Sequence record: PZ452579.1
Length of the DNA: 64,000 nucleotides
Strand: one strand, 5' to 3'
Source: a phage
Under the pieces are notes generated by a model. The model did no database searches. It was not told where the DNA came from and saw nothing but the letters and a program-made list of their open reading frames with translations. Made by a program: the position numbers and the translations under genes. Shown here piece by piece: positions 1,125-27,911 of this stretch (the first letter of the stretch is position 1; each line of letters opens with the position of its first letter).

Positions 1125-1154
1125 ATTATACTCCAACCATCCTTGGTTGTAAAC
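1125..1154 (-). promoter_or_regulatory. early-type promoter element (GTTTAC-N17/18-TATAAT on minus strand) with spacer inverted repeat
   Basis: Minus-strand GTTTAC and TATAAT about 18 nt apart; spacer palindrome CAACC/GGTTG; RBS follows. Confidence 0.55.
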
Positions 1155-1158
1155 TGAT

Positions 1159-2094
1159 TTATGATTTTAATGCATTCATTGCGTTAAAAAGTTTAGAGTA
1201 CTGCAACTGGAGCTTGGTAACTACTTGTTGAGCATCACGAAGCTTAGCTTGTGCTTTGTCAAGTTCAACAGACAGTTGGTCCATAGTGGCCTTGATTTGA
1301 TTATAATAGTAATCTTCAGCAGGAAGAAGACCGTTAGAGATTTCCAATTTAGTCGACGGTGAAGTGTATATAGATGGAGCAGTAGAATATGCACCTAGAA
1401 CTTCAGCATTGCCAATTGGGGTTGCAGTAATTGATGCTTCGAACGTTGCATTTTCCTTTTTAAGATTTTGATAGTATTCAGAGTCTTTGTGCCACCATGG
1501 CGCAGGAACCTTTTTACCAATAGATACACGAGCCTGGATAGCGATATGGCCCTTATTCTTGATAGGGTCGATAATATTAAGCTCACGAGAATAAATTGCT
1601 TTAATCTGGTGGATATTATCACCTAAAACTTCCAACGCTTGGTGGAATACACGAGCAACGTTATCATTCTTAGGTTTATACGTAAGAGTGAACTCGTTCT
1701 CACTGATAACCATGATTTCTAACTTATCGTAAGTATATTTCAAATGTTTCATGTTAATTGCTTGAGGACGAATACGAGAAGCAATGGCCATCAGATTGTT
1801 AAGGTTATTTCTGAACTGTTTAGCAAAATATTGTCCGTAACCGCCAATACAAAAATTACGAAGTTTCTGCTTGGCTAATAAACGGCTGAACTCACCATTT
1901 TTAATGAACTCTTTAACGGGTGTGTTAGTAACGCATTCAAATTGAGTAAACTTACGAGAAGTAATCCCATAATATGAACAGATTTCCTCAATCTCTTCAG
2001 GAGTCTTTACAGGCATACGGATGGGATTAGGTCCTGGGGTATATGCATTCGAGGTAAATTCTTTGATAAGTTCTCTACGTGTAATAGAAGCCAT
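1159..2094 (-). CDS. hypothetical protein, paralog of 2150..3145, C-terminal coiled coil
   Basis: 311-aa ORF; N-terminal and central blocks resemble the neighbour (ITRRELIKEF vs ITSDAVKHEI; GGYGQYFAKQFRNNLNNLMAIAS vs KGYGKSMADGIFSALNKLNVLSMI). Confidence 0.6.
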   Translation of the reverse strand: MASITRRELIKEFTSNAYTPGPNPIRMPVKTPEEIEEICSYYGITSRKFTQFECVTNTPVKEFIKNGEFSRLLAKQKLRNFCIGGYGQYFAKQFRNNLNNLMAIASRIRPQAINMKHLKYTYDKLEIMVISENEFTLTYKPKNDNVARVFHQALEVLGDNIHQIKAIYSRELNIIDPIKNKGHIAIQARVSIGKKVPAPWWHKDSEYYQNLKKENATFEASITATPIGNAEVLGAYSTAPSIYTSPSTKLEISNGLLPAEDYYYNQIKATMDQLSVELDKAQAKLRDAQQVVTKLQLQYSKLFNAMNALKS

Positions 2095-2120
2095 TTTATA
2101 TTCCTCATGTTGAAAAATTT

Positions 2121-2149
2121 ATTATACTACAACCATCCTTGGTTGTACA
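2121..2149 (-). promoter_or_regulatory. early-type promoter element (TGTACA-N17-TATAAT)
   Basis: Near-copy of the 1125-1154 element with a variant -35. Confidence 0.45.
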
Positions 2150-3145
2150 TCATTCCTTAAGAAGTTTTACTACTTGAATAAGATTAGCTCGTTCTGTTTT
2201 ATTTTTACCGTTTAAGCCTGCTAATCGTGAGATTTCATCGTCAGTCTGTTGAATAGTTACATTAAGTTCGTTAATCAAAGCTTCAAAGTATTTGATTTGC
2301 TCAGCATGTTTTGATTCAAATTTCTGAACCGGAATAACGTCTTGGTTCAGTTCATCAATAAGGTCTTTAAGAGCATCTTCTTGGTTGATATCATATTCAA
2401 CTTCTTTTATTTCTTCAGCGAGCTCGTCTTTATATCTAACATCTTTTAGTCCTGGAGCTGGACCTAAAATCTCTTCTTTAAGAGTACAAACATATCCAAT
2501 ACGATATCCAATGCCGTCTCGCTTGATATCAACTTCGTCGATAAATCCACAATGTTTAAGCCCGGAGCCAATTAGGTCAAAATATCCTTGACGACGTCCT
2601 TCAAACGTTACACGAACTACTAAGACGGTTTTGCCACCGACCTTTTGAAGCTCACATTTATAAAAGTCTGTTGAACCTGAATAACGTGGATGAGTTTTAA
2701 AGTTCATCTGACGATCTAGGCCCATTTGTAAGCGTGCTGATACGGCCAGAAAACGTGTTTGGTTCTCGTTAAGATGAGCAACAATCCATTTCAAAGGCAT
2801 TTTACCATGTTCACGACCGAACAAATCAGTACGTCCTAAATTACGCAGGATATTGTTAGAGTTAATCATCGACAGAACGTTAAGTTTATTCAGCGCGCTG
2901 AAGATTCCATCGGCCATTGATTTTCCGTAACCTTTACATGCTTTAATAAGCGCTCGCGGTAGATTAGTATAGATTTCAGACGGCATATGAAAATCAAATT
3001 TACTAACCAGTAATTGATGAACTTGGATAGCAATTTGTTCATAATTAAGTGCTCTGCGATCATTATGGTCTTTAAACCACACTTTAATCTGTGAAGCACA
3101 TAAACCGTTAATTTCATGTTTTACCGCATCAGATGTAATGCTCAT
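2150..3145 (-). CDS. hypothetical protein, paralog of 1159..2094, C-terminal coiled coil
   Basis: 331-aa ORF; shared blocks with neighbour; acidic/coiled C-terminus. Confidence 0.6.
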   Translation of the reverse strand: MSITSDAVKHEINGLCASQIKVWFKDHNDRRALNYEQIAIQVHQLLVSKFDFHMPSEIYTNLPRALIKACKGYGKSMADGIFSALNKLNVLSMINSNNILRNLGRTDLFGREHGKMPLKWIVAHLNENQTRFLAVSARLQMGLDRQMNFKTHPRYSGSTDFYKCELQKVGGKTVLVVRVTFEGRRQGYFDLIGSGLKHCGFIDEVDIKRDGIGYRIGYVCTLKEEILGPAPGLKDVRYKDELAEEIKEVEYDINQEDALKDLIDELNQDVIPVQKFESKHAEQIKYFEALINELNVTIQQTDDEISRLAGLNGKNKTERANLIQVVKLLKE

Positions 3146-3207
3146 AACTATTTCCTCAGATTGAATTGGAACTCAAAACCATTATAACCCGTCCTTGGGT
3201 AAAGCGT

Positions 3208-3735
3208 TTATGCGTGAACCGTCTTTAAACGTTCTTCAAATTTCCGAAGAGTACTAATACGTTCTGCTTTCTGTTTTGTATAGTTTGCAATACGTTCTGA
3301 AGTGAGAGCGTATCGTTCGTTTACTGTTTCTTTCATGAAGTCAGGGATTTCACGAGAAGCTTTAATTTCATCAAACTTATCGAGTACTGCCTGGTCTTCA
3401 GCGATTAAATTTTCGTACATCTCGATATCTTTCTTAATGAAGTCGATATCTTCCTGGGTTACTTTGGATAAACGAGATGCTTTATCCTTTTTGTACTGCT
3501 CGTTAGTTTCGCGAGACCAGAATAACGTACGTTTTTTGTTAGTGTTTTTGTAGACTTCCACAATTCCAACTGAATCGATGATAACAATCCAATTCCAGCG
3601 AGATTTGAAAATCTGACCTCCGTCCACGGTAATCTCGTTACCATAAGCAACGTCGTTAAAGAACTTGCTTTGTGCTTCAGATTTAAATTTACCGTCGTTA
3701 TAATTTACCAGGTTGAAAATATCTTTAGCGTTCAT
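3208..3735 (-). CDS. hypothetical protein
   Basis: 175-aa ORF; RBS (ggaggtaaaac) and early-promoter element immediately upstream. Confidence 0.55.
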   Translation of the reverse strand: MNAKDIFNLVNYNDGKFKSEAQSKFFNDVAYGNEITVDGGQIFKSRWNWIVIIDSVGIVEVYKNTNKKRTLFWSRETNEQYKKDKASRLSKVTQEDIDFIKKDIEMYENLIAEDQAVLDKFDEIKASREIPDFMKETVNERYALTSERIANYTKQKAERISTLRKFEERLKTVHA

Positions 3736-3751
3736 GTTTTACCTCCAGTAG

Positions 3752-3791
3752 TTGATAGGTCTATAATAACATAACCATAGACCTTGTAAAC
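3752..3791 (-). promoter_or_regulatory. early-type promoter with stem-loop enclosing the -10
   Basis: GTTTAC-N17-TATTAT; inverted repeat AGGTCTAT/ATAGACCT flanks the -10. Confidence 0.55.
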
Positions 3792-3793
3792 AA

Positions 3794-4081
3794 CTAAAAG
3801 AAACTTTTTTCGGTATTTTTTCCACTGAACCAAACCGACTTCGGTATTTTCTGTAATTTTTCAGATTTAAGTTTCTCTTCCTGTTCTTTCTTATATACAC
3901 CCTTGTCGTACTGGAGCATCTCTATGGCATTCTTTTGCAAACGATCTAAGGTAATTAAGGCTTTAGTTTTTCCTTTCAAGGAAGAGTCCTGGCGAACCTC
4001 CTCGCTATATTGCATCGTAGAACTAACCATACGATGAGCATAGAGTTCGACTGCGGCTTTAATTTTTTGCATAAAATCCAT
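3794..4081 (-). CDS. hypothetical protein
   Basis: 95-aa ORF; overlaps alternative-frame ORF 3976..4182, so the true frame is uncertain. Confidence 0.35.
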   Translation of the reverse strand: MDFMQKIKAAVELYAHRMVSSTMQYSEEVRQDSSLKGKTKALITLDRLQKNAIEMLQYDKGVYKKEQEEKLKSEKLQKIPKSVWFSGKNTEKSFF

Positions 4082-4219
4082 AACATATCCTCTTTGATTT
4101 GTACATCATTATTTTTAAATATTTCTATGCCCTCAGTAGGTTCCTGGTGTCCTTCTTTGAGGTAAGCCATATGATTATTCATCTTTATGGCTTTTGTTAC
4201 CTCAGAACTTCCTATAAGC

Positions 4220-4342
4220 TTATTTCAGTAAAGTAACTTCCGAGATTTCTTCCCAACCATCTTTATCAGTTGAAATAAAATCTGCTACATAAAGAGCCGT
4301 ACGTAATGATACATTGCGAAGACGAGATACGTTAGCCTTCAT
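4220..4342 (-). CDS. small hypothetical protein (about 40 aa), start overlaps stop of the ATPase gene (ATGA)
   Basis: ATG overlapping TGA stop of 4339..5190; MKANVSRLRNVSLRTALYVADFISTDKDGWEEISEVTLLK; below ORF-track length cut-off. Confidence 0.25.
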   Translation of the reverse strand: MKANVSRLRNVSLRTALYVADFISTDKDGWEEISEVTLLK

Positions 4343-5190
4343 CCAGGACAATGCTTTATACGTTTCTGCATCATGTCAGTAGATAATATTACATCTTCAA
4401 CTCGAACCATAATCTCTTCATTAGAGTGTACTCCAAGGTCCAAATACACTGAACGAGATACTAAAGCTTGAAGGTGGGGAGCAAGTTTCGAACCGCGTTC
4501 TAACTCTTTATCGATATCAACGTTTGTAATGAAAACAATAGTACCTTCAAACTCAAATTCTTTATCAATACCCTTATCATCGAGATAAGATGACGCAGTG
4601 CTCCAACAAACTTTGCGTTTATCTCCGGTATCTAATGCTGCTTTAAGAAGGTTCAAGATGTCCATATCTGAGAATACGTCAACGTCGTCGATTAAGAGAA
4701 CGCTGTCTGCATCACGGTTGAGCCAAAGTTGTTCGTAAAGGCCAATACCAGAGATTTTACCATTAATACTTTTGTATTTGATGAAACCATTATCATTAGC
4801 ATTATTAAGTGCTTTATCCAGAGAATACGTCTTACCAATACCGGCTGCACCTGAAATAATGAGTGAACGAATTTTGCCATCGATAATACCATTCGTCATC
4901 ATGTTCATTACTTTAAAGCGTTTGTTGATACGAGTTTTCATATCTTCAGTGCTTTCAACAACTGCAACTGGTGATGTCTCAACTCCTTCCATTACGATGT
5001 CTGATTTGAAGACCCATACTCCACGTTCAGAACCATCAATCATAACGAAAATTTTACCGTCACCTAAGTGGGAACATTCAGGATTAAGCTTTGCCGGGAA
5101 CCATGTCTTTGTGGCAACATAAGAACCAGAGATTTCGTTATTACGATAGATACCTTTTTTGATTTGAACGTTGAACATTTTATTCTCCAA
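4339..5190 (-). CDS. P-loop NTPase (AAA-like ATPase) with N-terminal extra domain
   Basis: 283-aa ORF; Walker A GAAGIGKT and Walker B-like LLIDDVD. Confidence 0.6.
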   Translation of the reverse strand: MENKMFNVQIKKGIYRNNEISGSYVATKTWFPAKLNPECSHLGDGKIFVMIDGSERGVWVFKSDIVMEGVETSPVAVVESTEDMKTRINKRFKVMNMMTNGIIDGKIRSLIISGAAGIGKTYSLDKALNNANDNGFIKYKSINGKISGIGLYEQLWLNRDADSVLLIDDVDVFSDMDILNLLKAALDTGDKRKVCWSTASSYLDDKGIDKEFEFEGTIVFITNVDIDKELERGSKLAPHLQALVSRSVYLDLGVHSNEEIMVRVEDVILSTDMMQKRIKHCPG

Positions 5191-5208
5191 ATTTACTCAT
5201 TTCGTTTC

Positions 5209-5246
5209 GATAGGTCTATAATAACATGTTTAAAGCAAAAGTAAAC
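5209..5246 (-). promoter_or_regulatory. early/middle-type promoter element (GTTTAC plus TGCTTTA box)
   Basis: GTTTAC-N17-TATTAT with MotA-box-like TGCTTTA in the spacer. Confidence 0.45.
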
Positions 5247-5248
5247 AA

Positions 5249-5467
5249 TTATTTGCGACGAGATTTTTTGGTAAGAGGTTGAAAGAACACTGCTTTACCA
5301 GCAGGAGTCAAAGTGACTCGTAATGCATTACCGATTCCCAAGGATGCTTTAACAAGACCTTTAGATTTCAGTTCACCGAATGCTTGACGTTGGTCTGCAT
5401 CACGAGTGTTAACCATAAGACCTTTATCACCAGCTTCACGAATCATTTCTAACATTTTGGTTTTCAT
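5249..5467 (-). CDS. small basic hypothetical protein
   Basis: 72-aa ORF with Lys/Arg-rich C-terminus; own promoter-like element upstream (5487-5526). Confidence 0.45.
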   Translation of the reverse strand: MKTKMLEMIREAGDKGLMVNTRDADQRQAFGELKSKGLVKASLGIGNALRVTLTPAGKAVFFQPLTKKSRRK

Positions 5468-5488
5468 TTTGTTTTCTCCTCTTGTTTT

Positions 5489-5526
5489 GATAGGTCTATA
5501 ATAACATATCCTAAAAGCATGTACAC
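5489..5526 (-). promoter_or_regulatory. middle-type promoter candidate (ATGCTTTTA box plus TATTAT)
   Basis: MotA-box-like ATGCTTTTA about 12 nt upstream of the -10; variant -35 GTGTAC. Confidence 0.4.
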
Positions 5527-5573
5527 TACTTTTTAAAAATATTTTGACCCCCTAAAGGGCCCGAAGGCCCTTA

Positions 5574-7805: not shown

Positions 7806-7825
7806 TTTGTTCTCCGTTTGTTTTG

Positions 7826-7863
7826 GTAGGACTACTATAACATAGTCCTACCAAGATGTAAAC
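7826..7863 (-). promoter_or_regulatory. early-type promoter with perfect spacer palindrome
   Basis: GTTTAC-N18-TATAGT; palindrome GGTAGGACT...AGTCCTACC. Confidence 0.55.
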
Positions 7864-8099: not shown

Positions 8100-8298
8100 A
8101 CATTTGCAATTCAGTGTGCGTATCAGCCATCTTTTTCATTGCCTTATTGATATCGATATCACCGTCTTCACACCCGTGGGCATTTTCCCAATCGGATACA
8201 GCGTTAGCGTACTCTTCAATCAAAAACATTAACTTAGAAATTTTTTCTTTACGTGACATAACGTTCTCCTCTAGTAAGTAAGGTCTACTATAACACAA
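8080..8298 (-). CDS. hypothetical protein
   Basis: 72-aa ORF; promoter element and terminator hairpin upstream. Confidence 0.45.
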   Translation of the reverse strand: MCYSRPYLLEENVMSRKEKISKLMFLIEEYANAVSDWENAHGCEDGDIDINKAMKKMADTHTELQMYVNEIM

Positions 8299-8315
8299 CC
8301 TGAGGAGAAGTAAAC
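8281..8315 (-). promoter_or_regulatory. early-type promoter element
   Basis: GTTTAC-N17-TATAGT directly downstream of a terminator hairpin (minus strand). Confidence 0.5.
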
Positions 8316-8325: not shown

Positions 8326-8354
8326 AAAAAAGCCCCAACCTTTCGGAAGGGGCT
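8326..8354 (-). terminator. intrinsic terminator (minus strand)
   Basis: AGCCCCTTCCGAAAGGTTGGGGC hairpin plus U-tract on minus strand, right after the stop of 8359..8916. Confidence 0.6.
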
Positions 8355-8358
8355 TTGA

Positions 8359-8916
8359 TTAGTTTTTGTAATATCGTAAAGGGTTGATATGGAATGAAAG
8401 CATTGCGCGTGGAATAGGACGACTCAAAAGACTCTTAAGTTTCCAACCACAGTAAACACGCAGATAAAATGTAATACCACCAACCTTAAGATAAGGTATA
8501 GCAGCGAATAATCCCCATGCAGACTCGTTCCAAACTAAAAGATATCCATGATGTGCCGGATCAGGAGATCCAGATTTAGTTTCGGCGTTGCCTTTATAGT
8601 GCCATTCTGATGAAGCTTCGCGACCTAAAACATGATACGAAAAATTATATGCTTTGTTGCGCCATAGCCAAGCTACGCGTTGAGCATATTTACCTATAAC
8701 AGGAATTTTACGTATTTTAGACCAACGTTCAACATGGCCGTGGTCACCATCGATAGGATTATCGTAAGTCATCATCCAGTCAAAGCCATAAGGTAGTTTA
8801 CCGGTTTTTTCACTATGGAATGGAACTACAAATGGTGCTAGAATAATTGCTAAAATCGCTGCGATCCAATCTATAGGAACAAGAACAACCCAACTTATGT
8901 ATTTTAAAAATTTCAT
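8359..8916 (-). CDS. hypothetical membrane-anchored protein
   Basis: 185-aa ORF with N-terminal hydrophobic segment; flanked by terminator hairpins. Confidence 0.5.
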   Translation of the reverse strand: MKFLKYISWVVLVPIDWIAAILAIILAPFVVPFHSEKTGKLPYGFDWMMTYDNPIDGDHGHVERWSKIRKIPVIGKYAQRVAWLWRNKAYNFSYHVLGREASSEWHYKGNAETKSGSPDPAHHGYLLVWNESAWGLFAAIPYLKVGGITFYLRVYCGWKLKSLLSRPIPRAMLSFHINPLRYYKN

Positions 8917-8949
8917 ATATCCTCTCTTAGTTTACAAGGATATTTATAC

Positions 8950-8976
8950 AAAAAGCCCCAACCTTTCGGAAGGGGC
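8950..8976 (-). terminator. intrinsic terminator (minus strand), identical copy
   Basis: Same hairpin plus U-tract after the rI stop. Confidence 0.6.
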
Positions 8977-8983
8977 AGGTAAA

Positions 8984-12325: not shown

Positions 12326-12341
12326 TTTTATTTCTCCTCTA

Positions 12342-12382
12342 GTTGACAGGTCTATAATAACACAACTACTGGAGAAGTAAAC
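12342..12382 (-). promoter_or_regulatory. early-type promoter element upstream of regB
   Basis: GTTTAC-N17-TATTAT then AGACCTGTCAAC and RBS. Confidence 0.5.
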
Positions 12383-14468: not shown

Positions 14469-14798
14469 TTATACTCTAGGCTTTTGAGCTTGTTTGGTAT
14501 TGGATTCCCATGCGGCTTTGGTAATTTTGTTAGCGGCATAACCAAAGGCATTAGATAGAACACCTTTAGAGTTGAATACATCCAATCCAATAAGTACACC
14601 GGCTGTGTTAAATTTAGGAGCAAAGTACGCATTAGTTTTAGAAAGAGCTTTTTTCAATTCAGGGTCTTGAACCAAGCCATCAAAAACGCCTTTACTATTT
14701 ACTTTATATGTTACTTTGGGATTTTTACCTTCTTCGATAGCAGCTTTCTGTTCCGCAGATAATGTAACTTCAGTGATAAACTCTTGATACGTTTTCAT
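14469..14798 (-). CDS. internal-protein-like capsid-targeted protein
   Basis: 109-aa ORF beginning MKTYQEFITE (capsid-targeting sequence, predicted prohead-protease cut after Glu10). Confidence 0.75.
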   Translation of the reverse strand: MKTYQEFITEVTLSAEQKAAIEEGKNPKVTYKVNSKGVFDGLVQDPELKKALSKTNAYFAPKFNTAGVLIGLDVFNSKGVLSNAFGYAANKITKAAWESNTKQAQKPRV

Positions 14799-14823
14799 TT
14801 TGTTCCTATTGTTTTAATTTATG

Positions 14824-15138
14824 TTATTCTTTAGGGAAGTTTTTAGAGTATGCGTCATAAAGTTTATTACCGATGCGACGGAAGACTTTAGCTGCAAAAC
14901 GGTTTTCAGGGTTTTTAATCATGATTTGCATCATGTAAGTTCCTGCATCCGAAAGAGCTTCTTCGTAGTACCCATTAATTTCTTTAAGAGTCCTACGTTT
15001 ACCACCAGGACCATCAACAGTAATTTTCCATTTACCTGTAGAAGTGCGGCTCGGTGGCTCAACTTGTTCAATCCAAATATAACCACCTTCAACGCGTTGG
15101 TTGGCGGATTCTGCAATAAATTCTTTATATGTTTTCAT
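14824..15138 (-). CDS. internal-protein-like capsid-targeted protein
   Basis: 104-aa ORF beginning MKTYKEFIAE; promoter element upstream (15156-15199). Confidence 0.75.
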   Translation of the reverse strand: MKTYKEFIAESANQRVEGGYIWIEQVEPPSRTSTGKWKITVDGPGGKRRTLKEINGYYEEALSDAGTYMMQIMIKNPENRFAAKVFRRIGNKLYDAYSKNFPKE

Positions 15139-15155
15139 TTTTTGTTTCCTTGTTT

Positions 15156-15199
15156 GTTTTGATAGAGTAATTATACCATATTAATACTTAAGCGTAAAC
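15156..15199 (-). promoter_or_regulatory. early-type promoter element upstream of an ip-like gene
   Basis: GTTTAC-N17-GTATAAT then TACTCTATCAA. Confidence 0.5.
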
Positions 15200-15202
15200 A
15201 AT

Positions 15203-15463
15203 TTAAGCTTTACCGCCAGAAATAATTCCGAAGTTGTTAAAATCGTATCCAATATCGTCAACATCTACTTTAGGACTTACTACAACATAAGCAATTTCAC
15301 TACGTTTTGCATAGGTGTTGATTTCTTTACCATCGCCACCTAAGAAAGAATACCCATTACGTTTTAATGAGCCAAAGTCTTCCGCATCACCAATGAAAGC
15401 TTTAACTTTAAATTTGGGGTCTTTGGCATCTGCTTCAGCTATAAATTCTTGATACATTTTCAT
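15203..15463 (-). CDS. internal-protein-like capsid-targeted protein
   Basis: 86-aa ORF beginning MKMYQEFIAE. Confidence 0.7.
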   Translation of the reverse strand: MKMYQEFIAEADAKDPKFKVKAFIGDAEDFGSLKRNGYSFLGGDGKEINTYAKRSEIAYVVVSPKVDVDDIGYDFNNFGIISGGKA

Positions 15464-15469
15464 TTTTCC

Positions 15470-15883
15470 TTAGTAAATTGATTTACCATAGTATTTGTAC
15501 CAAGTCGGACGTTGAGCAATTTTTTCATCTAAGCGTGCTTGACTTATCGCAATGGACGCTTCGGACGGGACGTAATTATTACGAAATTCTACAGGGATGT
15601 CGGAAATATCCTGGACAGTCGTGTCCTTGATTTTGAAACCACGTTTCAAACATTCGGCGATTAGCTCGATTTGTCGTAAACGTAAAAATTCAAGTTTGTC
15701 GTAAAAGAATGTTACGTGACCTGTGCCTAAGATAAATGTTGGAGAGATTTTAAAATCCTTTACACGTTTACCGTTTTGAACATGTTTACGGACTGCACCA
15801 AATACGCGTGGTAATTCACGATACTCAGCCATAAGATGTTGGTCGGTCAGTTCAGAAACAAGTGTTAAATTGATACGGGTCAT
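15470..15883 (-). CDS. denV: endonuclease V (pyrimidine-dimer DNA glycosylase)
   Basis: [31 protein letters not shown]... closely matches T4 DenV; ATG at 15883 with GGAGG RBS (track ORF begins at upstream TTG). Confidence 0.9.
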
Positions 15884-15910
15884 AATTTCCTCCAAGTAGT
15901 TGATGAATGT

Positions 15911-15940
15911 ATAGTATCAAAACCCTTGGAGGAAGTAAAC
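15911..15940 (-). promoter_or_regulatory. early-type promoter element upstream of denV
   Basis: GTTTAC-N18-TACTAT; GGAGG RBS then denV ATG. Confidence 0.5.
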
Positions 15941-15941: not shown

Positions 15942-16238
15942 CTATTTTTCTGAAGCGCCTGAAATATATTTTTCAAGTCGTTGCTTCATTAGCGAGCCGT
16001 TCTTAGCGATTTCTTCCGGTTTATCGCACATACGTAACAAGGCTTCAAGCTTAGCGATATCGCTGGTACGTTCAAATTTGCGAGTATCTATCTTACTAGC
16101 AAGTTCAGAAATACGTGCTAATAGACTTTCGGCTTCAACCAAAGCTGCACCTAGCTTAGTTGCAAATGTGTCAGTAGCTTCGTTAAGAATAGATTCTGAT
16201 AAAAATTCACTATATGTTTTCATATATACGCTTTCCAA
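15942..16238 (-). CDS. internal-protein-like capsid-targeted protein (ipII/ipIII position)
   Basis: 98-aa ORF beginning [10 protein letters not shown]; immediately downstream of gene e. Confidence 0.7.
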
Positions 16239-18896: not shown

Positions 18897-18917
18897 AATA
18901 TTCTCCTCATGTTTTAA

Positions 18918-18954
18918 TAGGACTACTATAACATAATCCTATAATTGTGTAAAC
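18918..18954 (-). promoter_or_regulatory. early-type promoter element with near-palindromic spacer
   Basis: GTTTAC-N18-TATAGT; ATAGGACT...AATCCTAT. Confidence 0.5.
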
Positions 18955-20203: not shown

Positions 20204-20211
20204 TTAATTTG

Positions 20212-20249
20212 ATAGGACTACTATAACATAGCCCTATCTTGTTGTAAAC
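20212..20249 (-). promoter_or_regulatory. early-type promoter element with near-palindromic spacer
   Basis: GTTTAC-N18-TATAGT; GATAGGAC...GCCCTATC. Confidence 0.5.
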
Positions 20250-21089: not shown

Positions 21090-21137
21090 ACGTTTAGCTA
21101 GGAGTTCATTATAACTAATCATTTGAGAAGCGTAAAC
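21090..21137 (-). promoter_or_regulatory. early-type promoter element
   Basis: GTTTAC-N18-TATAAT upstream of 20743..21048. Confidence 0.5.
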
Positions 21138-21146
21138 AGCATAAAT

Positions 21147-21569
21147 TCAGTTCAGGCTTTTGCATCTTATCTCCTTAACGAATTCCATGGCTTCGTCATA
21201 TTCATACTTTTTAACAGCTTCATCATACTGAGCTTGGGCTTTTGCACATTGAATTTTCCATTCGCGTACTCGAGCTCTATAATGACGTCCTTGGTACCAA
21301 TATCCCACCCAATTAATAGGCATTAATAAAAATGGCACAATAAACGACCCGGCTATAATAAGTAAAAACACTGCATCAGACGATATAACTTCACTAGAAT
21401 CTAAAACAGCTCCTATAATCATAAGGATTAAAAATGCTAAAGCTAAAATAGGGCCAAATAGTACTTCGTTTGGGATTAATTTACGTTTGTATTCGTATGC
21501 CCAGGGCTTAATTGGCATGTACAGGGTTGGCTTTGACATATTCTCTACATTCCATAATAAATTGCTCAA
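21147..21569 (-). CDS. predicted membrane protein
   Basis: 140-aa ORF with two transmembrane-like segments. Confidence 0.5.
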   Translation of the reverse strand: MSNLLWNVENMSKPTLYMPIKPWAYEYKRKLIPNEVLFGPILALAFLILMIIGAVLDSSEVISSDAVFLLIIAGSFIVPFLLMPINWVGYWYQGRHYRARVREWKIQCAKAQAQYDEAVKKYEYDEAMEFVKEIRCKSLN

Positions 21570-22785: not shown

Positions 22786-22821
22786 AACGAGAGCATTATA
22801 CTCTGCTCTCAAGAGTTTGTA
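22786..22821 (-). promoter_or_regulatory. early-type promoter element with palindrome around the -10
   Basis: ATTTAC-N18-TATAAT; GAGAGC...GCTCTC flanks the -10. Confidence 0.45.
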
Positions 22822-22823
22822 AA

Positions 22824-23051
22824 TTATTTTTTAATCAAATTGACATAAAACTTGGCGTCTTCGGGGTGCATGCCTTCGCAGTATTCTTCAACCATGAACT
22901 TCTTAATAGCTTCATAAGGACCACTCAGATTAAGCTCAGTTGTCCAGAACTTGGAATCTTGGGCTGAATCGATACGAACTTCAGGGTGGCGGTTGCGAAT
23001 AACTTCTTCAGTGTATTCATAATCAACGACATCAATACTAACTTTAGCCAT
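22824..23051 (-). CDS. hypothetical protein
   Basis: 75-aa ORF. Confidence 0.45.
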   Translation of the reverse strand: MAKVSIDVVDYEYTEEVIRNRHPEVRIDSAQDSKFWTTELNLSGPYEAIKKFMVEEYCEGMHPEDAKFYVNLIKK

Positions 23052-23067: not shown

Positions 23068-23109
23068 TTTGATGTGATTACTATAACATAAACTTACTTA
23101 GATGTAAAT
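23068..23109 (-). promoter_or_regulatory. early-type promoter element
   Basis: ATTTAC-N-TATAGT element of the TTGATGTGATTACTATAACATA type. Confidence 0.4.
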
Positions 23110-23262
23110 TATTTCAACGTCACCTTTAGCTGCTTTATAACCTTCAGCCCAAGATACAACAGAGTTTTTATCTGAGGATTCAAATTCAGGCATTGGACTT
23201 TCACCAATATTCACACAATATGTTTCTTCATTTTCATCGAACCAAATAATTAAAGTAGTCAT
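23098..23262 (-). CDS. small hypothetical protein (54 aa)
   Basis: ATG with GAGGAG RBS and early-promoter element upstream; MTTLIIWFDENEETYCVNIGESPMPEFESSDKNSVVSWAEGYKAAKGDVEIIYI; below ORF-track cut-off. Confidence 0.4.
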   Translation of the reverse strand: MTTLIIWFDENEETYCVNIGESPMPEFESSDKNSVVSWAEGYKAAKGDVEIIYI

Positions 23263-23280
23263 TTTGTTTACTCCTCTGTA

Positions 23281-23322
23281 GTTGATAAGTCTATAGTATC
23301 ACCATCCTTGGTGCTTGTACAT
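23281..23322 (-). promoter_or_regulatory. early-type promoter element (near-copy of 60301-60336)
   Basis: Shares the block GTTTACTCCTCTGTAGTTGATAAGTCTATAGTATCAC with the element near gene 24; spacer palindrome CACCA/TGGTG. Confidence 0.5.
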
Positions 23323-23330
23323 CATTATTT

Positions 23331-23663
23331 TTAATTTTTCCAACTTAACAACTTGTAGTGTCCTTCATTCATACGTGGTTTATCCCAAGAAATACTAATA
23401 TATGATTCGCTGTCAATAGAAGTCGCCGGGTTTTTCTCTACCGTAAGACCTTCACTTTCCAGCCATTCAATAGTATTTGCGCATAAATCTGAAGAACACC
23501 TAATCGGAAACCGGCAAGATTTTTCACCTTTAGCTGCAGTGTTATACATCTTTTCTAAAATACGCTTTTGCACGTTTTTAAAAATAGTTTCAGCAGATTC
23601 TTCAGATTTTTTATTCAGTTCAGTGTAAAGACTCATAACATTCTTCTCATTAATAGGGCTCAT
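23331..23663 (-). CDS. hypothetical protein
   Basis: 110-aa ORF. Confidence 0.45.
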   Translation of the reverse strand: MSPINEKNVMSLYTELNKKSEESAETIFKNVQKRILEKMYNTAAKGEKSCRFPIRCSSDLCANTIEWLESEGLTVEKNPATSIDSESYISISWDKPRMNEGHYKLLSWKN

Positions 23664-23693
23664 AATATCTCAATCATAAGCCCATGTACGCGT

Positions 23694-23969
23694 TTATTTC
23701 ATATTATCGAAATATTCTTCAGCGATTTCGTCATTATCATGGTAAACTTTAGAAGACAGTTTAACATAACCTTCTGCGGTGAACATATTAATCACAACCT
23801 TTATAGTATACCACTGTCCGTCTTCATTACCCATTACTGCGTAAGTTTCAAACATCGGATGGTCAGGTCCAATAACTTTAATATCATTCACCGTACGACC
23901 AAAATCTTCTGGAACGCATTTCATAAAGAAGTTGAACAGTTCACCGTAATTATCCATTTCATTCTCCAA
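23694..23969 (-). CDS. hypothetical protein
   Basis: 91-aa ORF; promoter element upstream. Confidence 0.45.
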   Translation of the reverse strand: MENEMDNYGELFNFFMKCVPEDFGRTVNDIKVIGPDHPMFETYAVMGNEDGQWYTIKVVINMFTAEGYVKLSSKVYHDNDEIAEEYFDNMK

Positions 23970-23984
23970 GTTTTTTCTGTATCG

Positions 23985-24027
23985 GTAGTTGATAGTTGTA
24001 TAGTACCACGGAAGAACAGGGATGTAA
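23985..24027 (-). promoter_or_regulatory. early-type promoter element
   Basis: GTTTAC-N-TACTAT. Confidence 0.45.
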
Positions 24028-24159
24028 ACAGTTTTGTGAAAAAATTTTTAAAAAGTTTTGGGGAATTCTAGGGCAGGGAGAGGAAATTAAAAGGTAGGAT
24101 AATATATTATAAAGGGTTAAACTAAATGATGCCTAGAGAGGCCCGGAAAGGCCTAGATA

Positions 24160-24188
24160 CCAAAAAGCCCTATCATTTAGATAGGGAT
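24160..24188 (-). terminator. intrinsic terminator after the 187-aa ip-like gene
   Basis: Hairpin CCCTATC-TAAATGA-TAGGG followed by CTTTTT on minus strand; A-run on plus side. Confidence 0.55.
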
Positions 24189-24194
24189 TTAAAA

Positions 24195-24758
24195 TTATTT
24201 ACCTAGTTTAGTTATTATAGCTTCGGCAGCAGCTTTTAGCTTAGATGCAGTGTTAATACGATTTTTAATTTCAGTATACGCATCGCCAAGAACATCAAGG
24301 CTATCAGAATAAACACTTACACTATTGCGTTCGCTATTTGAAATAGAACCTTTAGTTTTACGATCAAAATCAGTGTACACGTCTTGAAGATCACGGGCTG
24401 CCTTCTTTGCATCATCCAATGCATCAAGAGCTTTATTCAAAGCATTGACATATTTTTTAGTGTCAAACATATTCTTAGAAATTTTAACAGGTGCACGTTC
24501 AGGAGTAGCTAAGGCGGATTTAGGAACCTGCGTGCCAGATGCCAGTTTCTTAGAAATTTTGAAAAACGCTTTATTGAAACTATTTTCTTGTCTCATCGTA
24601 AAAGAACTAGTATCGATGTTATACATTTCAATAGCTTTAGCTTTCCACTTAAGAAAATCGCCGCGGTCTTTTGGATCCAAGTGGAAGAATACTTTAGTAA
24701 GATCTGCTTCAGATGGTAATTTTGCTGCTTCGGTTAAAAATTCGGCATAGGTTTTCAT
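24195..24758 (-). CDS. internal-protein-like capsid-targeted protein (IPIII-sized)
   Basis: 187-aa ORF beginning MKTYAEFLTE; terminator hairpin downstream. Confidence 0.7.
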   Translation of the reverse strand: MKTYAEFLTEAAKLPSEADLTKVFFHLDPKDRGDFLKWKAKAIEMYNIDTSSFTMRQENSFNKAFFKISKKLASGTQVPKSALATPERAPVKISKNMFDTKKYVNALNKALDALDDAKKAARDLQDVYTDFDRKTKGSISNSERNSVSVYSDSLDVLGDAYTEIKNRINTASKLKAAAEAIITKLGK

Positions 24759-24848
24759 TTAAAATCCTTGAAATAATTTATCGGTTGGTTATTAATTATT
24801 TATTACTTTGTTATTATCAGTAACAGCATTCTCTGAGTGATTCAAACT

Positions 24849-24876
24849 AAAAAGCCCCAACCTTTCGGAAGGGGCT
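24849..24876 (-). terminator. intrinsic terminator (minus strand), identical copy, closing the tRNA/RNA region
   Basis: Same hairpin plus U-tract on minus strand. Confidence 0.65.
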
Positions 24877-25187
24877 AAGCCTTGCGGCAACCTTGTCGGG
24901 GTTCCACCTGCTAAGGCAAGTGTTTGTACGAAACGCCGGGATTCGAACCCGGTTATTAAGTAGTTGACGCTACTCAATATTTTTAAAAGGCCATATCTCG
25001 ACCATATCCGAACGTTCCGTCAAAAACGCTACTCGGCTTACGGCAAAGATATTTCCTCGAATCGATAATTCTGTGCGCCGTTTCTGCTGTGATGTAATGG
25101 GATATTAACAAATCGTAAAGATTTATTAAGACCAGTCCTTACTCAGGGAACATCAGTCCGACGACTTACCGGTAGCGACCCGGCTTC
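24877..25187 (-). ncRNA. structured non-coding region with tRNA-like 3' domain (candidate small stable RNA or degenerate tRNA)
   Basis: About 310 nt without convincing ORF between a CDS stop and a terminator; contains T-arm-like CCGGG-TTCGAAT-CCCGG (about 24936-24952) plus possible acceptor pairing, but no canonical D/anticodon arms found by hand. Confidence 0.3.
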
Positions 25188-25532
25188 TTATTTTGACATA
25201 TCATCAATTTGCTCTCGACGCCGACGCCATAGATTAATCGCTTCATTAACACATTCGGCGTTTGGTATATGACGGCAATAATATAATGATTCACGTTTCT
25301 GGAACCGATGTTGCAATGGTATTTCGTTTAAAAGGTCTTTACGGTCAAAGTATTCAAAACTAGTTAACCCAGAACGGTTTTTAATGAACTTCCAATGTCC
25401 AAATTCATTTTGAACATAGATGTAATCGGCATGCTGATACAGCGAATTAATCAATCGATGAGAAATAACTGTGTCATATTCGTTAAAATAAAACGTTAAA
25501 TCATGAACTACCAGATAAATATTGCCTTTCAT
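25188..25532 (-). CDS. hypothetical protein
   Basis: Track ORF 25188..25580 starts at a TTG inside tRNA-Arg; ATG at 25530-25532 with GTGAGGA RBS gives 114 aa (MKGNIYLVVHD...). Confidence 0.5.
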   Translation of the reverse strand: MKGNIYLVVHDLTFYFNEYDTVISHRLINSLYQHADYIYVQNEFGHWKFIKNRSGLTSFEYFDRKDLLNEIPLQHRFQKRESLYYCRHIPNAECVNEAINLWRRRREQIDDMSK

Positions 25533-25550
25533 ATTTTCCTCACTTAAAGT

Positions 25551-25627
<77 letters not shown>

Positions 25628-25633
25628 AATATA

Positions 25634-25707
25634 TGACCCAGACCAGATTCGAACTGGTAACCTTTCCCTTATGAGGGGACTGCTGCTAACCATTGAGCTA
25701 CAGGGCC
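25634..25707 (-). tRNA. tRNA with anticodon CAU (Ile2/Met type), no encoded CCA
   Basis: Hand-folded: acceptor GGCCCTG/CTGGGTC (one U-U mismatch), anticodon loop CUCAUAA, T-arm ACCAG-TTCGAAT-CTGGT; 6 nt upstream of tRNA-Arg. Confidence 0.65.
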
Positions 25708-25786
25708 TAAATAACTTTCTATTATGAAAGGCACTTTAGAGTACCTTTGGTAATAGAGGGTATTAATTAATAATAACACATAATTC

Positions 25787-26302
25787 TTAAAGCAAATCAA
25801 TCATTTTAACAGTTGGCAAAACGATTTCTTCTTCAATATAAGCAAATTCAACACATTCAACTACACGCAAGAAATCATAATCATAATATTCAGAAGCATG
25901 GCCAAGAATATCAATGAGACCTTCTGATACCAAATATCCATTCTCACGGAACAGGTCGAATACACGCGATTCGTCTTCTTCAGATTTATCGCCAAGGTCA
26001 ACTTCAATACCAAAGACCTTTTTAATGAATTCCGGCTGGAGCTGGTCAGAGAACAGTCCTTCAACCAGATATTCGTAGATAATAAGCGAGCAACGACCGA
26101 ATGGCATATTACCACAGTAACGTTCAGCTTTAGTGCTAGAATGACGACTCTTAAATTTCTTCAAAAGATATTTAAACTGTTGGAGCTCATGCTCTTCTAC
26201 ACCAAACAACGTTTTAGTTTTATAGTTGTCGCCGTCATTTTCCCAAGTAGTGACATCAATTACGTAACCCTTAGGAATTGTACTGCCTAAACAAATATTC
26301 AT
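25787..26302 (-). CDS. hypothetical acidic protein
   Basis: 171-aa ORF upstream of the tRNA pair. Confidence 0.5.
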   Translation of the reverse strand: MNICLGSTIPKGYVIDVTTWENDGDNYKTKTLFGVEEHELQQFKYLLKKFKSRHSSTKAERYCGNMPFGRCSLIIYEYLVEGLFSDQLQPEFIKKVFGIEVDLGDKSEEDESRVFDLFRENGYLVSEGLIDILGHASEYYDYDFLRVVECVEFAYIEEEIVLPTVKMIDLL

Positions 26303-26306
26303 TTAC

Positions 26307-26597
26307 TCACCGTACCATATTAATGTAATTATATTCAATGCAACGTAATTTCAAAGGATTCTTGAAAATATCATATTCAAGAGGGCCTTTTTCTGTTTCA
26401 ATAAAGAAATCAAAGTTAACTGTGTTAAATTTATCGTCTTCACAGAGTAATTTAACTTGCGAAGATGAACGGTCGATATAAACCTTTTCAACCTCAAAGT
26501 TAGTCAGAATACCATAGTCATTAACTAGTGCTTTAGCTGCACGTTGATCGCTTTCATATCCATTCTCGACAGATTTTACTTTAGCATAAAGAATCAT
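26307..26597 (-). CDS. hypothetical protein
   Basis: 96-aa ORF. Confidence 0.45.
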   Translation of the reverse strand: MILYAKVKSVENGYESDQRAAKALVNDYGILTNFEVEKVYIDRSSSQVKLLCEDDKFNTVNFDFFIETEKGPLEYDIFKNPLKLRCIEYNYINMVR

Positions 26598-26956
26598 GAA
26601 TGTTCCACCACTTCAAAGGTATGAGCATCAACAATATGATACCAGTCAAAATTTTCTTCTGCGTTTTTATAAATTTCGCGAAGAGCCTCAACAGTTTTTC
26701 CTGTAGCAACAAGGTCGTCAATACCACCAAGAGGATAACAGTCATAACCAGCAAACAGAAGGAAATTAATAGTTTCTGTAGGTTCTGGATGCAGAACTCC
26801 GTTATCGTCTACCACTTCAAAGAAAGTGTAAGAAGGAGTACAAGTTTTAATCCAAGCCCATGCTTGAGCCGCTGAATCAAATGGTCTGCGTATCAAACGA
26901 CAATCAGAGTCTTTAGAAGGATTTGCTTCAAAATCTGCATATACATGATATTTCAT
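26594..26956 (-). CDS. hypothetical protein
   Basis: 120-aa ORF; start/stop overlaps with neighbours. Confidence 0.45.
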   Translation of the reverse strand: MKYHVYADFEANPSKDSDCRLIRRPFDSAAQAWAWIKTCTPSYTFFEVVDDNGVLHPEPTETINFLLFAGYDCYPLGGIDDLVATGKTVEALREIYKNAEENFDWYHIVDAHTFEVVEHS

Positions 26957-27163
26957 TTACTCACCTTTTGCAATTTTATCCATAACAATAGCGATTAAAC
27001 CGATTAGAAATGCTACTACCAATGAGATAGAATTTTCTGTTGTTGTCAGTAGTCCACAAATGAATCCTACAAACATCGAAAAACTAAAAGCCATTGAAGC
27101 AATTACTACAGCAACATTACGAATCAGTTCAGCGCGTTTCATTTTATTTCTCCATTTACTCAT
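26957..27163 (-). CDS. small predicted membrane protein
   Basis: 68-aa ORF with two hydrophobic helices. Confidence 0.45.
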   Translation of the reverse strand: MSKWRNKMKRAELIRNVAVVIASMAFSFSMFVGFICGLLTTTENSISLVVAFLIGLIAIVMDKIAKGE

Positions 27164-27165
27164 TT

Positions 27166-27210
27166 GTTTTGATAGGACTACTATAACATATCCATATAGG
27201 CTTGTATACC
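27166..27210 (-). promoter_or_regulatory. early-type promoter element
   Basis: Conserved block TTGATAGGACTACTATAACATA with variant -35. Confidence 0.45.
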
Positions 27211-27211
27211 T

Positions 27212-27487
27212 TTATTTCAAATATATTGCGTATTTTTTATAGCCACCAGGCTCGTGTCGAAGACCTTTATCATTCGCAAAACGTTGAATGTTATTGAACT
27301 GATTTTCATCAAGTTCGGATGTGTCAAATATAAAAAAGTTTCGTTTGTTACCAAGCGTGATATGCGGAGTTAAGTCAATGTTATACAAATTAAGAATATC
27401 AGCAATAACCTGATTGACTGCTTTGTTAATTTTCACACCAGACGATTCTGAGATGAATTCGTTGAAAGTTTTCATTTTAGGTTCCAT
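27212..27487 (-). CDS. internal-protein-like capsid-targeted protein
   Basis: 91-aa ORF beginning MKTFNEFISE; promoter element upstream. Confidence 0.7.
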   Translation of the reverse strand: MEPKMKTFNEFISESSGVKINKAVNQVIADILNLYNIDLTPHITLGNKRNFFIFDTSELDENQFNNIQRFANDKGLRHEPGGYKKYAIYLK

Positions 27488-27496
27488 TTGGTTGTT

Positions 27497-27536
27497 TTGA
27501 TAGGACTACTATAACATAGTCCTACCATGATGTAAA
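27497..27536 (-). promoter_or_regulatory. early-type promoter with perfect spacer palindrome
   Basis: GTTTAC-N18-TATAGT; TAGGACTA...TAGTCCTA; near-identical to the 7826-7863 element. Confidence 0.55.
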
Positions 27537-27848
27537 CTATTTTATGCCTTTAGATGAAATAGTATTCTGGCGTTTGACCCCAGTTTGTGAAAAATCATGG
27601 TTATCAATTTGGTCAACTCGCATAACACCAAACGCAGATTTAATTTTGGCCTTTGAACCTTTTTTGATACTAATTACCATATAAGTATCATTTTTCTTAT
27701 ATTCGAAATTTGATACTTCAACGCCTTGATTAGAAATTGACTTAATAATAGCATTAGCGTATTCATCATCTAACGGGCCGTTAGTGTTAATAACAAAATT
27801 TTTATCCGCTTTAGTAGCTTCCGCGATGAATTCTTGATAGGTTTTCAT
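27537..27848 (-). CDS. ipI: internal protein I-like capsid-targeted protein
   Basis: 103-aa ORF beginning MKTYQEFIAE; adjacent to 57B as ipI in T4. Confidence 0.75.
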   Translation of the reverse strand: MKTYQEFIAEATKADKNFVINTNGPLDDEYANAIIKSISNQGVEVSNFEYKKNDTYMVISIKKGSKAKIKSAFGVMRVDQIDNHDFSQTGVKRQNTISSKGIK

Positions 27849-27870
27849 TTTATTTCCTTGAGGTTGTTTA

Positions 27871-27911
27871 TTTGATAGGATGATAGTAACACACCATCAT
27901 CCTTATGTAAA
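27871..27911 (-). promoter_or_regulatory. early-type promoter with spacer palindrome, upstream of ipI
   Basis: GTTTAC-N18-TACTAT; GGATGAT...ATCATCC. Confidence 0.5.

Follow-up and report, generated by a model that had tools for sequence, protein, structure and literature searches.

Early-promoter cassettes of an RB69-type phage embed inverted repeats, some of which may mask the Shine-Dalgarno sequence of the next gene in read-through RNA

The stretch analyzed here, referred to as the window, comprises 64,000 nucleotides of phage DNA (sequence record PZ452579.1), and our subject is a family of promoter elements with embedded inverted repeats that is spread over positions 1125–27911. Comparison of window bases 1–25000 with Escherichia phage RB69 revealed 96.7% identity over 96% of the length, many further Mosigvirus genomes also matched this part, and by sequence similarity the source is an RB69-type (Mosigvirus) T4-like phage. 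The RB69 annotation, mapped onto positions 1–31000, outlined a T4-type early region on the minus strand, with the gene order nrdC.3 to tk, vs, regB, denV, e, the e.x genes, two tRNAs, ipI, and 57B/57A; past ~31 kb, the coding strand changes to late genes. Many of the genes downstream of the elements are hypotheticals (RB69ORFxxx) or internal-protein-like. Our analysis indicates that the elements are early promoters, that their inverted repeats are real and under selection, and that in a subset, missed by the original prediction of this family, the promoter spacer pairs with the Shine-Dalgarno (SD) sequence of the next gene.

The motif GTTTAC-N16-19-TANNNT occurs 21 times against 4.3 expected, a count attained in none of 100 shuffles, which bears out the proposed family of GTTTAC, a 17–18-nt spacer, and a TATAAT-like hexamer. 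Seventeen of the 21 matches lie on the minus strand between positions 145 and 27912, and the strict version ending in TATAAT has four matches against 0.19 expected. When one or two mismatches were allowed in the -35 hexamer and every intergenic gap was inspected, ~21 credible cassettes were counted in 1125–27911. This agrees with the 20 or more elements originally proposed, while the claim that nearly every minus-strand spacer holds one was too generous, as, of the 36 minus-strand gaps in this range that measure 25 nt or more, ~20–22 contain a promoter cassette. Among 23 promoters, the -35 hexamer is GTTTAC in 16, the spacer measures 18 nt in 17 and 17 nt in the other 6, and an extended -10 (TG at -15/-14) is found in 17. 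The 25 nt upstream of the -35 are A+T-rich (73%, with 41% A, against a background of 63%, with 33% A). The consensus thus reads as an A-rich tract, GTTTAC, 18 (17) nt, TG, TAtaaT, and ..cCTATCaA, and the cassette as a whole occupies 50–70 intergenic nt in which an UP tract, GTTTAC, the spacer, a TGn -10, an AUCAA start region, the SD, and the ATG follow one another. Two candidates were rejected as members: 14362–14333, which matches the motif and lacks the start block, and 63175–63146, which has the motif without the start block and without a nearby ribosome-binding site (RBS). The near-identical recurrence of a longer block had also been pointed out, with coordinates that proved to be off by at most 4 nt: TTGATAGGACTACTATAACATA is present at 7823, 18914, 20209, 27169, and 27497 with zero or one mismatch (0 copies expected), and with three mismatches at 3752, 5487, and 23069.

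In RB69, 58 early promoters (Pe sites) have been predicted and their coordinates listed (Nolan et al. 2006, Virol J 3:30, Additional file 3). The 21 Pe sites of this region were taken from the RB69 locus and aligned to the window, where every aligned site falls on a cassette, mostly with 90–100% identity; conversely, a listed Pe site could be assigned to every cassette. The same consensus, spacing, A-rich upstream tract, and C-rich positions -3 to -1 are shared with the RB69 promoters and with the T4 class, and the window differs from RB69 in a few cassette gains and losses. In T4, the promoters of regB, denV, nrdC.8, and ipI-III have the layout of the window cassettes, and regB has been described in a review as having 'a typical early promoter'; the T4 record itself holds no promoter features. 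Together with the location in the T4 early region from nrdC to 57A, the alignment to RB69 identifies the elements, at the level of sequence, as sigma-70-dependent early promoters, as had been proposed. Being expected RB69-type promoters that were already predicted in the reference genome, they change the annotation little. Stem-loops, hairpins, and inverted repeats are mentioned nowhere in Nolan et al. 2006.

The excess of inverted repeats was assessed by shuffling 62-nt promoter segments with both hexamers held fixed. The minimum free energy (MFE) falls in the lowest 5% of the segment's own shuffles for 13 of the 21 segments (mean z -2.0, p = 2e-4), and 7 of the 21 lie below the 5th percentile of random same-strand genomic 62-mers. 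A chimera test, in which the -35 and spacer of one promoter were joined to the -10 and following 40 nt of another, guards against pairing that arises merely from the shared consensus. Here, self combinations averaged -11.5 kcal/mol and cross combinations -9.1 kcal/mol, and the observed mean was attained in 1 of 20,000 permutations. The inverted repeats are thus more frequent than in shuffled sequence, and we conclude that they are real and under selection.

Structural inspection separated the embedded stems, whose stability ranges from -13 to -21 kcal/mol, into two classes, all members being on the minus strand. Class A is a compact hairpin with one arm in the spacer, the other starting at the final base of the -10 or immediately downstream, and a loop of 5–12 nt. 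Four members carry a GGACTA-type stem. The early promoter at 7823–7863 (7863) has a 12-bp stem, TTGGTAGGACTA/TAGTCCTACCAA (7854–7843/7834–7823; shuffle z -5.7), with an 8-nt loop that holds most of the -10, and its SD (GGAG) remains free. Those at 18917–18954 (18954; ATAGGATTA/TAGTCCTAT) and 20211–20249 (20249; GATAGGGCTA/TAGTCCTATC) contain one G·U pair each, as does the promoter of an internal-protein-like gene at 27498–27537 (27537; TGGTAGGACTA/TAGTCCTATCA), whose 11-bp stem (27527–27517/27508–27498) surrounds the -10. The two examples singled out originally, 7826–7863 and 27497–27536, therefore hold up as stems around the -10. Other stem sequences occupy the same place in the remaining members: at the nrdC.8 early promoter (3757–3791; GGTCTAT) the hairpin AGGTCTAT/ATAGACCT (3784–3777/3764–3757) lies around the -10; at 27877–27912, upstream of an internal-protein-like gene (MKTYQEFIAE), it is AGGATGATGGT/ACTATCATCCT (stem AGGATGAT); at the e.6 early promoter (22789–22824; -35 ATTTAC) it is GAGAGCA/TGCTCTC; and at 23656–23691 a weak promoter, GCGTAC-18-TATTAT (23691–23662; RB69 Pe:72936, score 10.8), carries GGGCTTAT/ATGAGCCC, similar to the hairpin of the T4 e.7 promoter.

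In class B, the 8–14 nt right after GTTTAC pair with the SD region 17–45 nt downstream. At the early promoter at 8264–8315 (8315), the spacer sequence TTCTCCTC (8309–8302) pairs with the SD sequence GAGGAGAA (8271–8264). The regB early promoter (12332–12382; 12382) pairs TTCTCCAGTAGTTG (12376–12363) with CAACTAGAGGAGAA (12345–12332), which includes the regB SD, and the denV early promoter (15887–15940; 15940) pairs TTCCTCCAAG (15934–15925) perfectly with CTTGGAGGAA (15896–15887), again with the SD inside. The e.8 early promoter (23962–24029; 24029) probably belongs here too, as TTCTTCC in its spacer could base-pair with GGAGAA at the distant SD, which would be masked in read-through RNA. The nrdC.8 promoter (3791) is partly of this class: sequence upstream of its -35 forms an outer pairing with CAACTACTGGAGG that reduces the accessibility of the SD.

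Since five close Mosigvirus loci were too similar for a covariation test, we turned to more distant ones, the regB, denV, nrdC.8, and e.6 loci of T4 itself and of T4-like contigs in IMG/VR. In RB69 and further close relatives, the regB helix is a perfect 14 bp. In the distant regB, denV, and nrdC.8 orthologues, the arm after GTTTAC changes jointly with the bases that flank the SD, around a CUCC/GGAG core (TTCTCCTCTAGTTG/CAACTAGAGGAGAA, TTTTCCTCTTGACTG/CAGTTAAGAGGAGAA, ATCTCCGTTTG/CAAACGGAGAT, and TTCTCCTGTAGATG/CATCTACAGGAGAA), the proteins of the class B lineages compared being only 40–80% identical. A duplex permutation over 16 lineages gave -16.7 kcal/mol for self and -10.9 kcal/mol for cross combinations (0 of 20,000 permutations). 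In the helix-anchored register, pairing extends to 79.5% of the cells, compared with 63% when partners are shuffled (0 of 5000), and the inner helix columns show three to four pair types. The 5′ arm lies in the spacer or at the -10/discriminator, upstream of the inferred +1, in 16 of 16 lineages; some denV lineages have the anti-SD arm at the -10/discriminator instead of the spacer (TAGTGTTCTC/GAGAACACTA).

The structure may also change class or sequence at a conserved place. The nrdC.8 promoter has a class A hairpin in the window and a class B helix in the T4-type and a third lineage, and the e.6 promoters of three lineages show unrelated stems at the same place around the -10 (GAGAGCA/TGCTCTC, GGCTCAT/ATGAGCC, and GTGTAGGAG/CTCCTACAC). 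The T4 ipI, ipII, ipIII, and e.7 promoters have a hairpin built likewise around the -10. The original observation that pairing is kept while the sequence varies is therefore seen among the paralogues, and more strongly among orthologues of distant T4-like phages. A scan of IMG/VR with GTTTAC-N13-TATGTTATAGT returned 41 stretches, mostly from unrelated phages and too thin for a covariation alignment of the paralogues; its T4-like matches included GGGCTA/TAGCCC versus GGACTA/TAGTCC. At promoter-like sites of this pattern in IMG/VR contigs unrelated to T4 (L006, L009, L014, L016, and L022), complementary arms flank the -10, for example TAAATAT...ATGTTTA, and the promoter-in-hairpin layout may thus extend beyond the T4-like phages.

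The strand on which the helices are kept was addressed by typing the mismatches in the main helix of 31 non-redundant promoters, with G·T and A·C penalized equally. Of the internal mismatches, 15 were G·T and 2 A·C, with 4 of other types (binomial p = 0.002). The mRNA-sense strand thus forms the better helix, and selection acts on this strand, most likely on the RNA.

Partition-function folding was then used to compare the read-through RNA (60 nt upstream of the -35 to +33) with the predicted own transcript of each promoter, with controls in which only the sequence upstream of +1 was shuffled. The probability of an unpaired SD was 0.01 in the read-through RNA and 0.65 in the own transcript for 8315 (5% of the shuffled controls at or below the native value), 0.00 and 0.50 for regB (12382; 0% of controls), 0.00 and 0.57 for denV (15940; 0% of controls), and 0.10 and 0.23 for 3791 (4% of controls). 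Promoters 18954, 2150, and 1154 were borderline, at about 10% of the shuffled controls, and in class A cassettes the SD was open to the same or a greater degree than in the controls. The SD is thus predicted to lie in a long-transcript helix for 8315, 12382, and 15940, partly for 3791 and 24029, and not in class A.

The placement of the arms suggests how they might act. Because the predicted start lies ~7 nt after the -10, the 5′ arm would be missing from the promoter's own transcript, and only RNA begun at a promoter farther upstream, and reading through the cassette, could then form the helix. Within the cassette, only the spacer and the bases just past the -10 would be free to vary, and the RNA helix arms would have been placed there. 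In class B, the 5′ arm would serve as an anti-SD, so that the RBS is masked in read-through RNA and open in own-promoter RNA, and translation would be tied to the firing of the gene's own early promoter. We infer that regB, denV, nrdC.8, and a few other genes would be translated essentially from their own early transcripts. The GGAG of class B read-through RNA would presumably also be shielded from RegB; as RegB is blocked by secondary structure, the masked read-through form should be RegB-resistant. Gating of this kind is plausible for regB, because its synthesis is tightly limited according to a review. In class A, the hairpin might be a structural element of the read-through RNA, for example a protector of the 3′ end after leader cleavage or an insulator against pairing between promoter and SD, and its fixed position may reflect that the spacer and discriminator offer the only free bases in a 50–70-nt cassette. 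Finally, the near-identical 20–45-nt cassette cores would provide the homology through which recombination gains or loses the small genes lying between cassettes. Taken as a whole, this explanation (early-promoter cassettes, helix arms acting in read-through RNA, class B gating, and core-driven recombination) appears to us fairly probable.

A known arrangement in T4 offers a precedent for class B. In the T4 e, soc, 49, and I-TevI genes, long transcripts hide the SD or AUG in a helix, and a promoter within the 5′ arm yields a short transcript that is translated. Class B shares this geometry, with compensatory conservation of the helix and a 5′ arm upstream of +1. The difference lies in timing: the internal promoters of the T4 genes are late and delay translation, whereas the internal promoter of class B is early and would limit translation to the gene's own early transcripts. 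We searched the papers on promoter-early stem-loop (PeSL) cassettes, discussed below, and T4 reviews for anti-SD arms in early-promoter spacers and found none, although an earlier description in older literature is possible. Such arms, apparently conserved across T4-like phages, seem to be an under-described feature. More tentatively, across T4-like phages including T4 itself, the early-promoter spacers of regB, denV, nrdC.8, probably e.8, and others might double as anti-SD arms of a covarying RNA switch, one that separates own-promoter transcripts (translatable and RegB-sensitive) from read-through delayed-early or middle ones (masked and RegB-resistant). If so, synthesis of the products of regB, denV, nrdC.8, and similar genes would be confined to the first minutes of infection, and the switch would mirror, with reversed timing, the late-gene hairpins of e, soc, and 49. 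Masking restricted to read-through RNA would also give a testable reason for the dense early-promoter arrays within transcribed regions, and a possible way to limit translation to the immediate-early window.

Several observations weigh against this explanation or narrow it. Eight promoters (174, 5246, 5526, 15199, 21137, 23109, 23322, and 27209) lack a meaningful stem, and a stem is thus not needed for promoter activity; promoters 1154, 2150, and 23322 have only a 4–6-bp hairpin within the spacer. Clear SD masking was found in only 3–5 of about 21 promoters, and across 20 promoters the SD was not significantly less accessible with the native than with the shuffled upstream sequence (Wilcoxon p = 0.11), so the idea that all stems gate translation was dropped in favor of a subset. 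The position of +1 was derived from the geometry of sigma-70 promoters and from the RB69 promoter model, whose end lies 7 nt past the -10. Owing to misaligned SD columns, RNAalifold found no consensus structure in plain MAFFT alignments of the regB and denV leaders, and the evidence for covariation comes from the helix-anchored counts and the duplex permutation, both in registers of our own. The comparison of sense and antisense MFE over whole segments was marginal (p = 0.065), the 15:2 mismatch count takes in a few related lineages, and the G·T bias would also fit a hairpin in the non-template DNA strand. The role of class A is the weakest step: 3′-end protection, insulation, and attenuation are all candidates.

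Attenuation leads to a first alternative, in which the embedded stems terminate or attenuate upstream transcription, so that a cassette ends one unit and starts the next. This was proposed for the PeSL cassettes, defined as a strong early promoter, a stem-loop, an SD, and an ATG (Arbiol et al. 2010), a concept later carried to PST/T4 and nt-1/KVP40 (Comeau et al. 2014). The window cassettes resemble them, as the original prediction had recognized: stems lie between the -35 and -10 or over the -10, G·T pairs are noted in the stems, an SD and start codon follow, the cassettes sit in hyperplastic regions beside small open reading frames (ORFs) and internal-protein genes, and indel boundaries coincide with them, recombination between cassettes gaining or losing genes. 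We conclude that they are cassettes of PeSL type, a published concept of which the RB69-type members are new; the published cases are RB49/phi1, PST/T4, and nt-1/KVP40, and RB69 is mentioned in neither paper. There are differences as well. RB49 stems consist of G-run/C-run arms and were called terminators, PST/T4 stems were shown 'just upstream of the promoter', and neither paper mentions translation or ribosomes, whereas a subset of the window stems pairs with the SD.

For RB49, the terminator label has experimental backing, as one PeSL stem-loop lowered lacZ expression to an extent similar to that of the rrnB T1 terminator (Arbiol et al. 2010), and several published TransTerm terminators of RB43 and RB49 lie inside predicted early-promoter intervals; RB49-type PeSLs may thus double as terminators. 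The stability of the window stems would also suit this function. However, no embedded stem in the window is followed by a T-run: the tails (AACAAACG, AAACAACC, ATCAAATA, and similar) have 0–2 T in 8 nt, A-rich leaders come after the stems, and a terminator scan flagged none of them. Canonical terminators, with a GC-rich hairpin and a T-run, are instead separate elements upstream of the -35 of four promoters, at 5561–5546 (just upstream of 5526), 8354–8327 (upstream of 8315), 22151–22134, and 24186–24168 (upstream of 24029). The published RB69 TransTerm terminators of this region are these separate hairpins, none overlapping a predicted promoter, and the ARNold terminators of PhAPEC2 are likewise apart from promoters. 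Class B helices, with loops of 17–45 nt that include the SD, do not have terminator geometry. The embedded stems are, by these features, not terminator-like, the suggestion that they could double as terminators is not upheld for this phage, and their identity as intrinsic terminators was rejected; we consider a terminator or attenuator role unlikely. As the PeSL 'terminator' label misfits this phage group, the stems should not serve as transcript ends in operon predictions.

A second alternative places the inverted repeats at the level of DNA, as cruciforms or single-strand hairpins that are cut (e.g. by endonuclease VII) or stall replication, acting as recombination hot spots or tuning promoter melting, with RNA folding incidental. 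It gains from the recombination record of the locus. Comparison of the window by BLAST with five Mosigvirus loci revealed ~30 distinct breakpoints. In phage ChristianSchoenbein, window positions 5237–5472 are missing, and the junction is a clean hybrid promoter made of the upstream half of 5526 and the downstream half of 5246, with the crossover inside 19 nt common to both (ATGTTATTATAGACCTATC). The two partners are the early promoter GTGTAC-17-TATTAT of the RB69ORF102c homologue (5498–5526, upstream) and the nrdC.10 early promoter (5218–5246, downstream), and the 72-codon ORF at 5249–5467 between them was lost, showing that recombination between two adjacent cassettes deleted the intervening ORF in one relative. 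Further breakpoints lie at cassette edges. At 21137, the window lacks ~250 bp of e.3 that are present in RB69 (24272–24523 of the locus compared) and in four other relatives, the deletion abuts the -35 (21137–21149), and e.3 is, as read from the sequence, truncated or fused; at 23073, two relatives have an indel at the predicted +1 of the frd.3 promoter; and at 27209, homology to the relatives stops at the -35. The originally suggested module shuffling is thus supported by the match between element positions and indel boundaries in the five relatives compared, in agreement with the recombination model for PeSLs.

Internal-protein-like genes take part in the same pattern. Seven genes (14767–14811, 15107–15151, 15432–15476, 16192–16236, 24720–24781, 27444–27488, and 27817–27861) have an MKTYQEFIAE-type N-terminus, which we take to be the capsid-targeting leader of T4 internal proteins, and on that assumption the window holds a large, variable set of internal-protein-like genes. 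The breakpoints at 27826 and 15110 fall just past this conserved MKTYxEFI N-terminus. Conserved flanks of polymorphic internal-protein (IP) loci in T-even phages were described by Repoila et al. 1994, as cited by Arbiol et al. 2010. The window is similar in that cassettes 15199, 27537, and 27912 precede MKTYxEFI genes and homology breaks after the leader (15110 and 27826) or at the promoter (27209).

Besides this coincidence of breakpoints and cassettes, the DNA-level alternative can point to the RB49 mini-circle crossovers, which were mapped inside or beside the stem-loop, and to G·T being the least destabilizing DNA mismatch, which makes a non-template-strand hairpin compatible with the bias. 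A cruciform, however, requires both strands to fold, and the 15:2 bias of G·T over A·C opposes it. The class B arms are 17–45 nt apart, one of them being the SD, and their covariation across genera has an RNA rationale and no obvious DNA one. Moreover, the observed crossover lies in the -10/start block shared by 5246 and 5526; since both promoters are stemless, homology alone suffices for crossover. We therefore regard an action of the repeats as DNA as improbable. The hybrid junction is a clean natural case of cassette-mediated gene loss and bears on the diversification of accessory genes in therapeutic T4-like phages.

Terminators form a repeat family of their own. A 28-nt terminator hairpin, AAAAAGCCCCAACCTTTCGGAAGGGGCT, is nearly exactly repeated at 8327–8354, 8950–8977, and 24849–24876, with a further copy at 71% at 24162–24189. 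Two of the copies flank a 595-bp insertion (8355–8949) with a single ORF (8359–8916; DUF7338, E = 1e-61); none of the five relatives compared has this insertion. At the copy at 24849–24876, an additional cassette of ~520 bp is present in the relatives and missing from the window. Cassette exchange seems to use terminators as junctions in the same way as promoters.

The pairing might also be a functionless by-product, left by recent duplication of a quasi-palindromic core or by template-switch repair that keeps the arms complementary. Five class A copies with almost the same 22-nt block are clearly paralogous, eight promoters are stemless, and the left arm of promoter 27209 is lost without evidence that the copy is being purged. 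Yet unrelated stem sequences occupy the same position in 3791, 22824, 27912, and 23691, and likewise in orthologous promoters of distant phages; the class B arms covary with the SD flanks over lineages with strongly diverged proteins; and the chimera test, although conservative for shared paralogy, still gave its result. The orthologue covariation largely refutes this reading, which we judge very improbable. A further reading, in which a dimeric phage or host protein binds the palindromes as operators to shut off early promoters, might fit repeats centered on the -10 and a T4 shut-off mechanism that reviews call unresolved. It was rejected as hardly credible, since the arms are wholly different between cassettes and lineages with pairing kept and no shared recognition sequence, their spacing varies from 4 to 45 nt, and many early promoters have no repeat.

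The remaining cassettes, all on the minus strand, have short hairpins or none. The nrdC.3 early promoter (1125–1154), GTTTAC-18-TATAAT, corresponds to RB69 Pe:51019 and has the hairpin AACCA/TGGTT (1148–1144/1139–1135) entirely within its spacer. Spacer hairpins are also found in the early promoters at 2121–2150 (ATGTAC-18-TATAAT; RB69 Pe:52042), with CAACCA/TGGTTG, and at 23293–23322 (ATGTAC-18-TACTAT; RB69 Pe:72567), with CACCA/TGGTG. Upstream of nrdC.6 (3146–3207), CTTTAC is followed by only 12 nt (ccaaggacgggt) and then TATAAT; ccaaggacgggt is related to ACCAAGGATGGT, the hairpin in the spacers of three other promoters, and the element resembles a decayed cassette whose spacer has been shortened by deletion. 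Stemless cassettes include the early promoter of an internal-protein-like gene at 15170–15199 (N-terminus MKTYKEFIAE) and that of frd.3 at 23080–23109 (ATTTAC). The early promoter at 27180–27209 (GTATAC) keeps the conserved right arm with a left arm that is not complementary; its orthologues in relatives have GTTTAC and an intact hairpin, a perfect GATAGGACTA/TAGTCCTATC one in phage ST2 (about 34600–34660 of locus L044), and the window copy appears to be degenerating or recombinant. The perfect GTTTAC-18-TATAAT at 21108–21137 lies within the e.3 coding sequence in RB69, without the CTATCAA block and without a nearby RBS, and its counterpart, RB69 Pe:70143, has the lowest score (4.9); its function as a promoter is doubtful. 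Outside 1125–27911, a stemless element of the early-promoter type at 145–174 overlaps the 3′ end of nrdC.3 upstream of nrdC.2, and another, far beyond this range at 60307–60336, has a -35 GTTTAC that can pair with GTAAAC right after the SD.

A search of positions 1–32000 with Rfam 15 families at the gathering score matched two tRNA genes only, at 25554–25627 and 25634–25707 on the minus strand, and a known Rfam family was thus rejected for the cassettes. RB69 is annotated with two tRNAs (Arg and Met) and relatives with two or three (Arg/Asn/Met or Arg/Ile), making the tRNA cluster a further variable spot. Upstream of the homologue of gene 1 (dNMP kinase), the element at 29351–29403 has tatgTTATAAT with GCTTC at about -30 and could be a MotA-type middle promoter instead of an early one.

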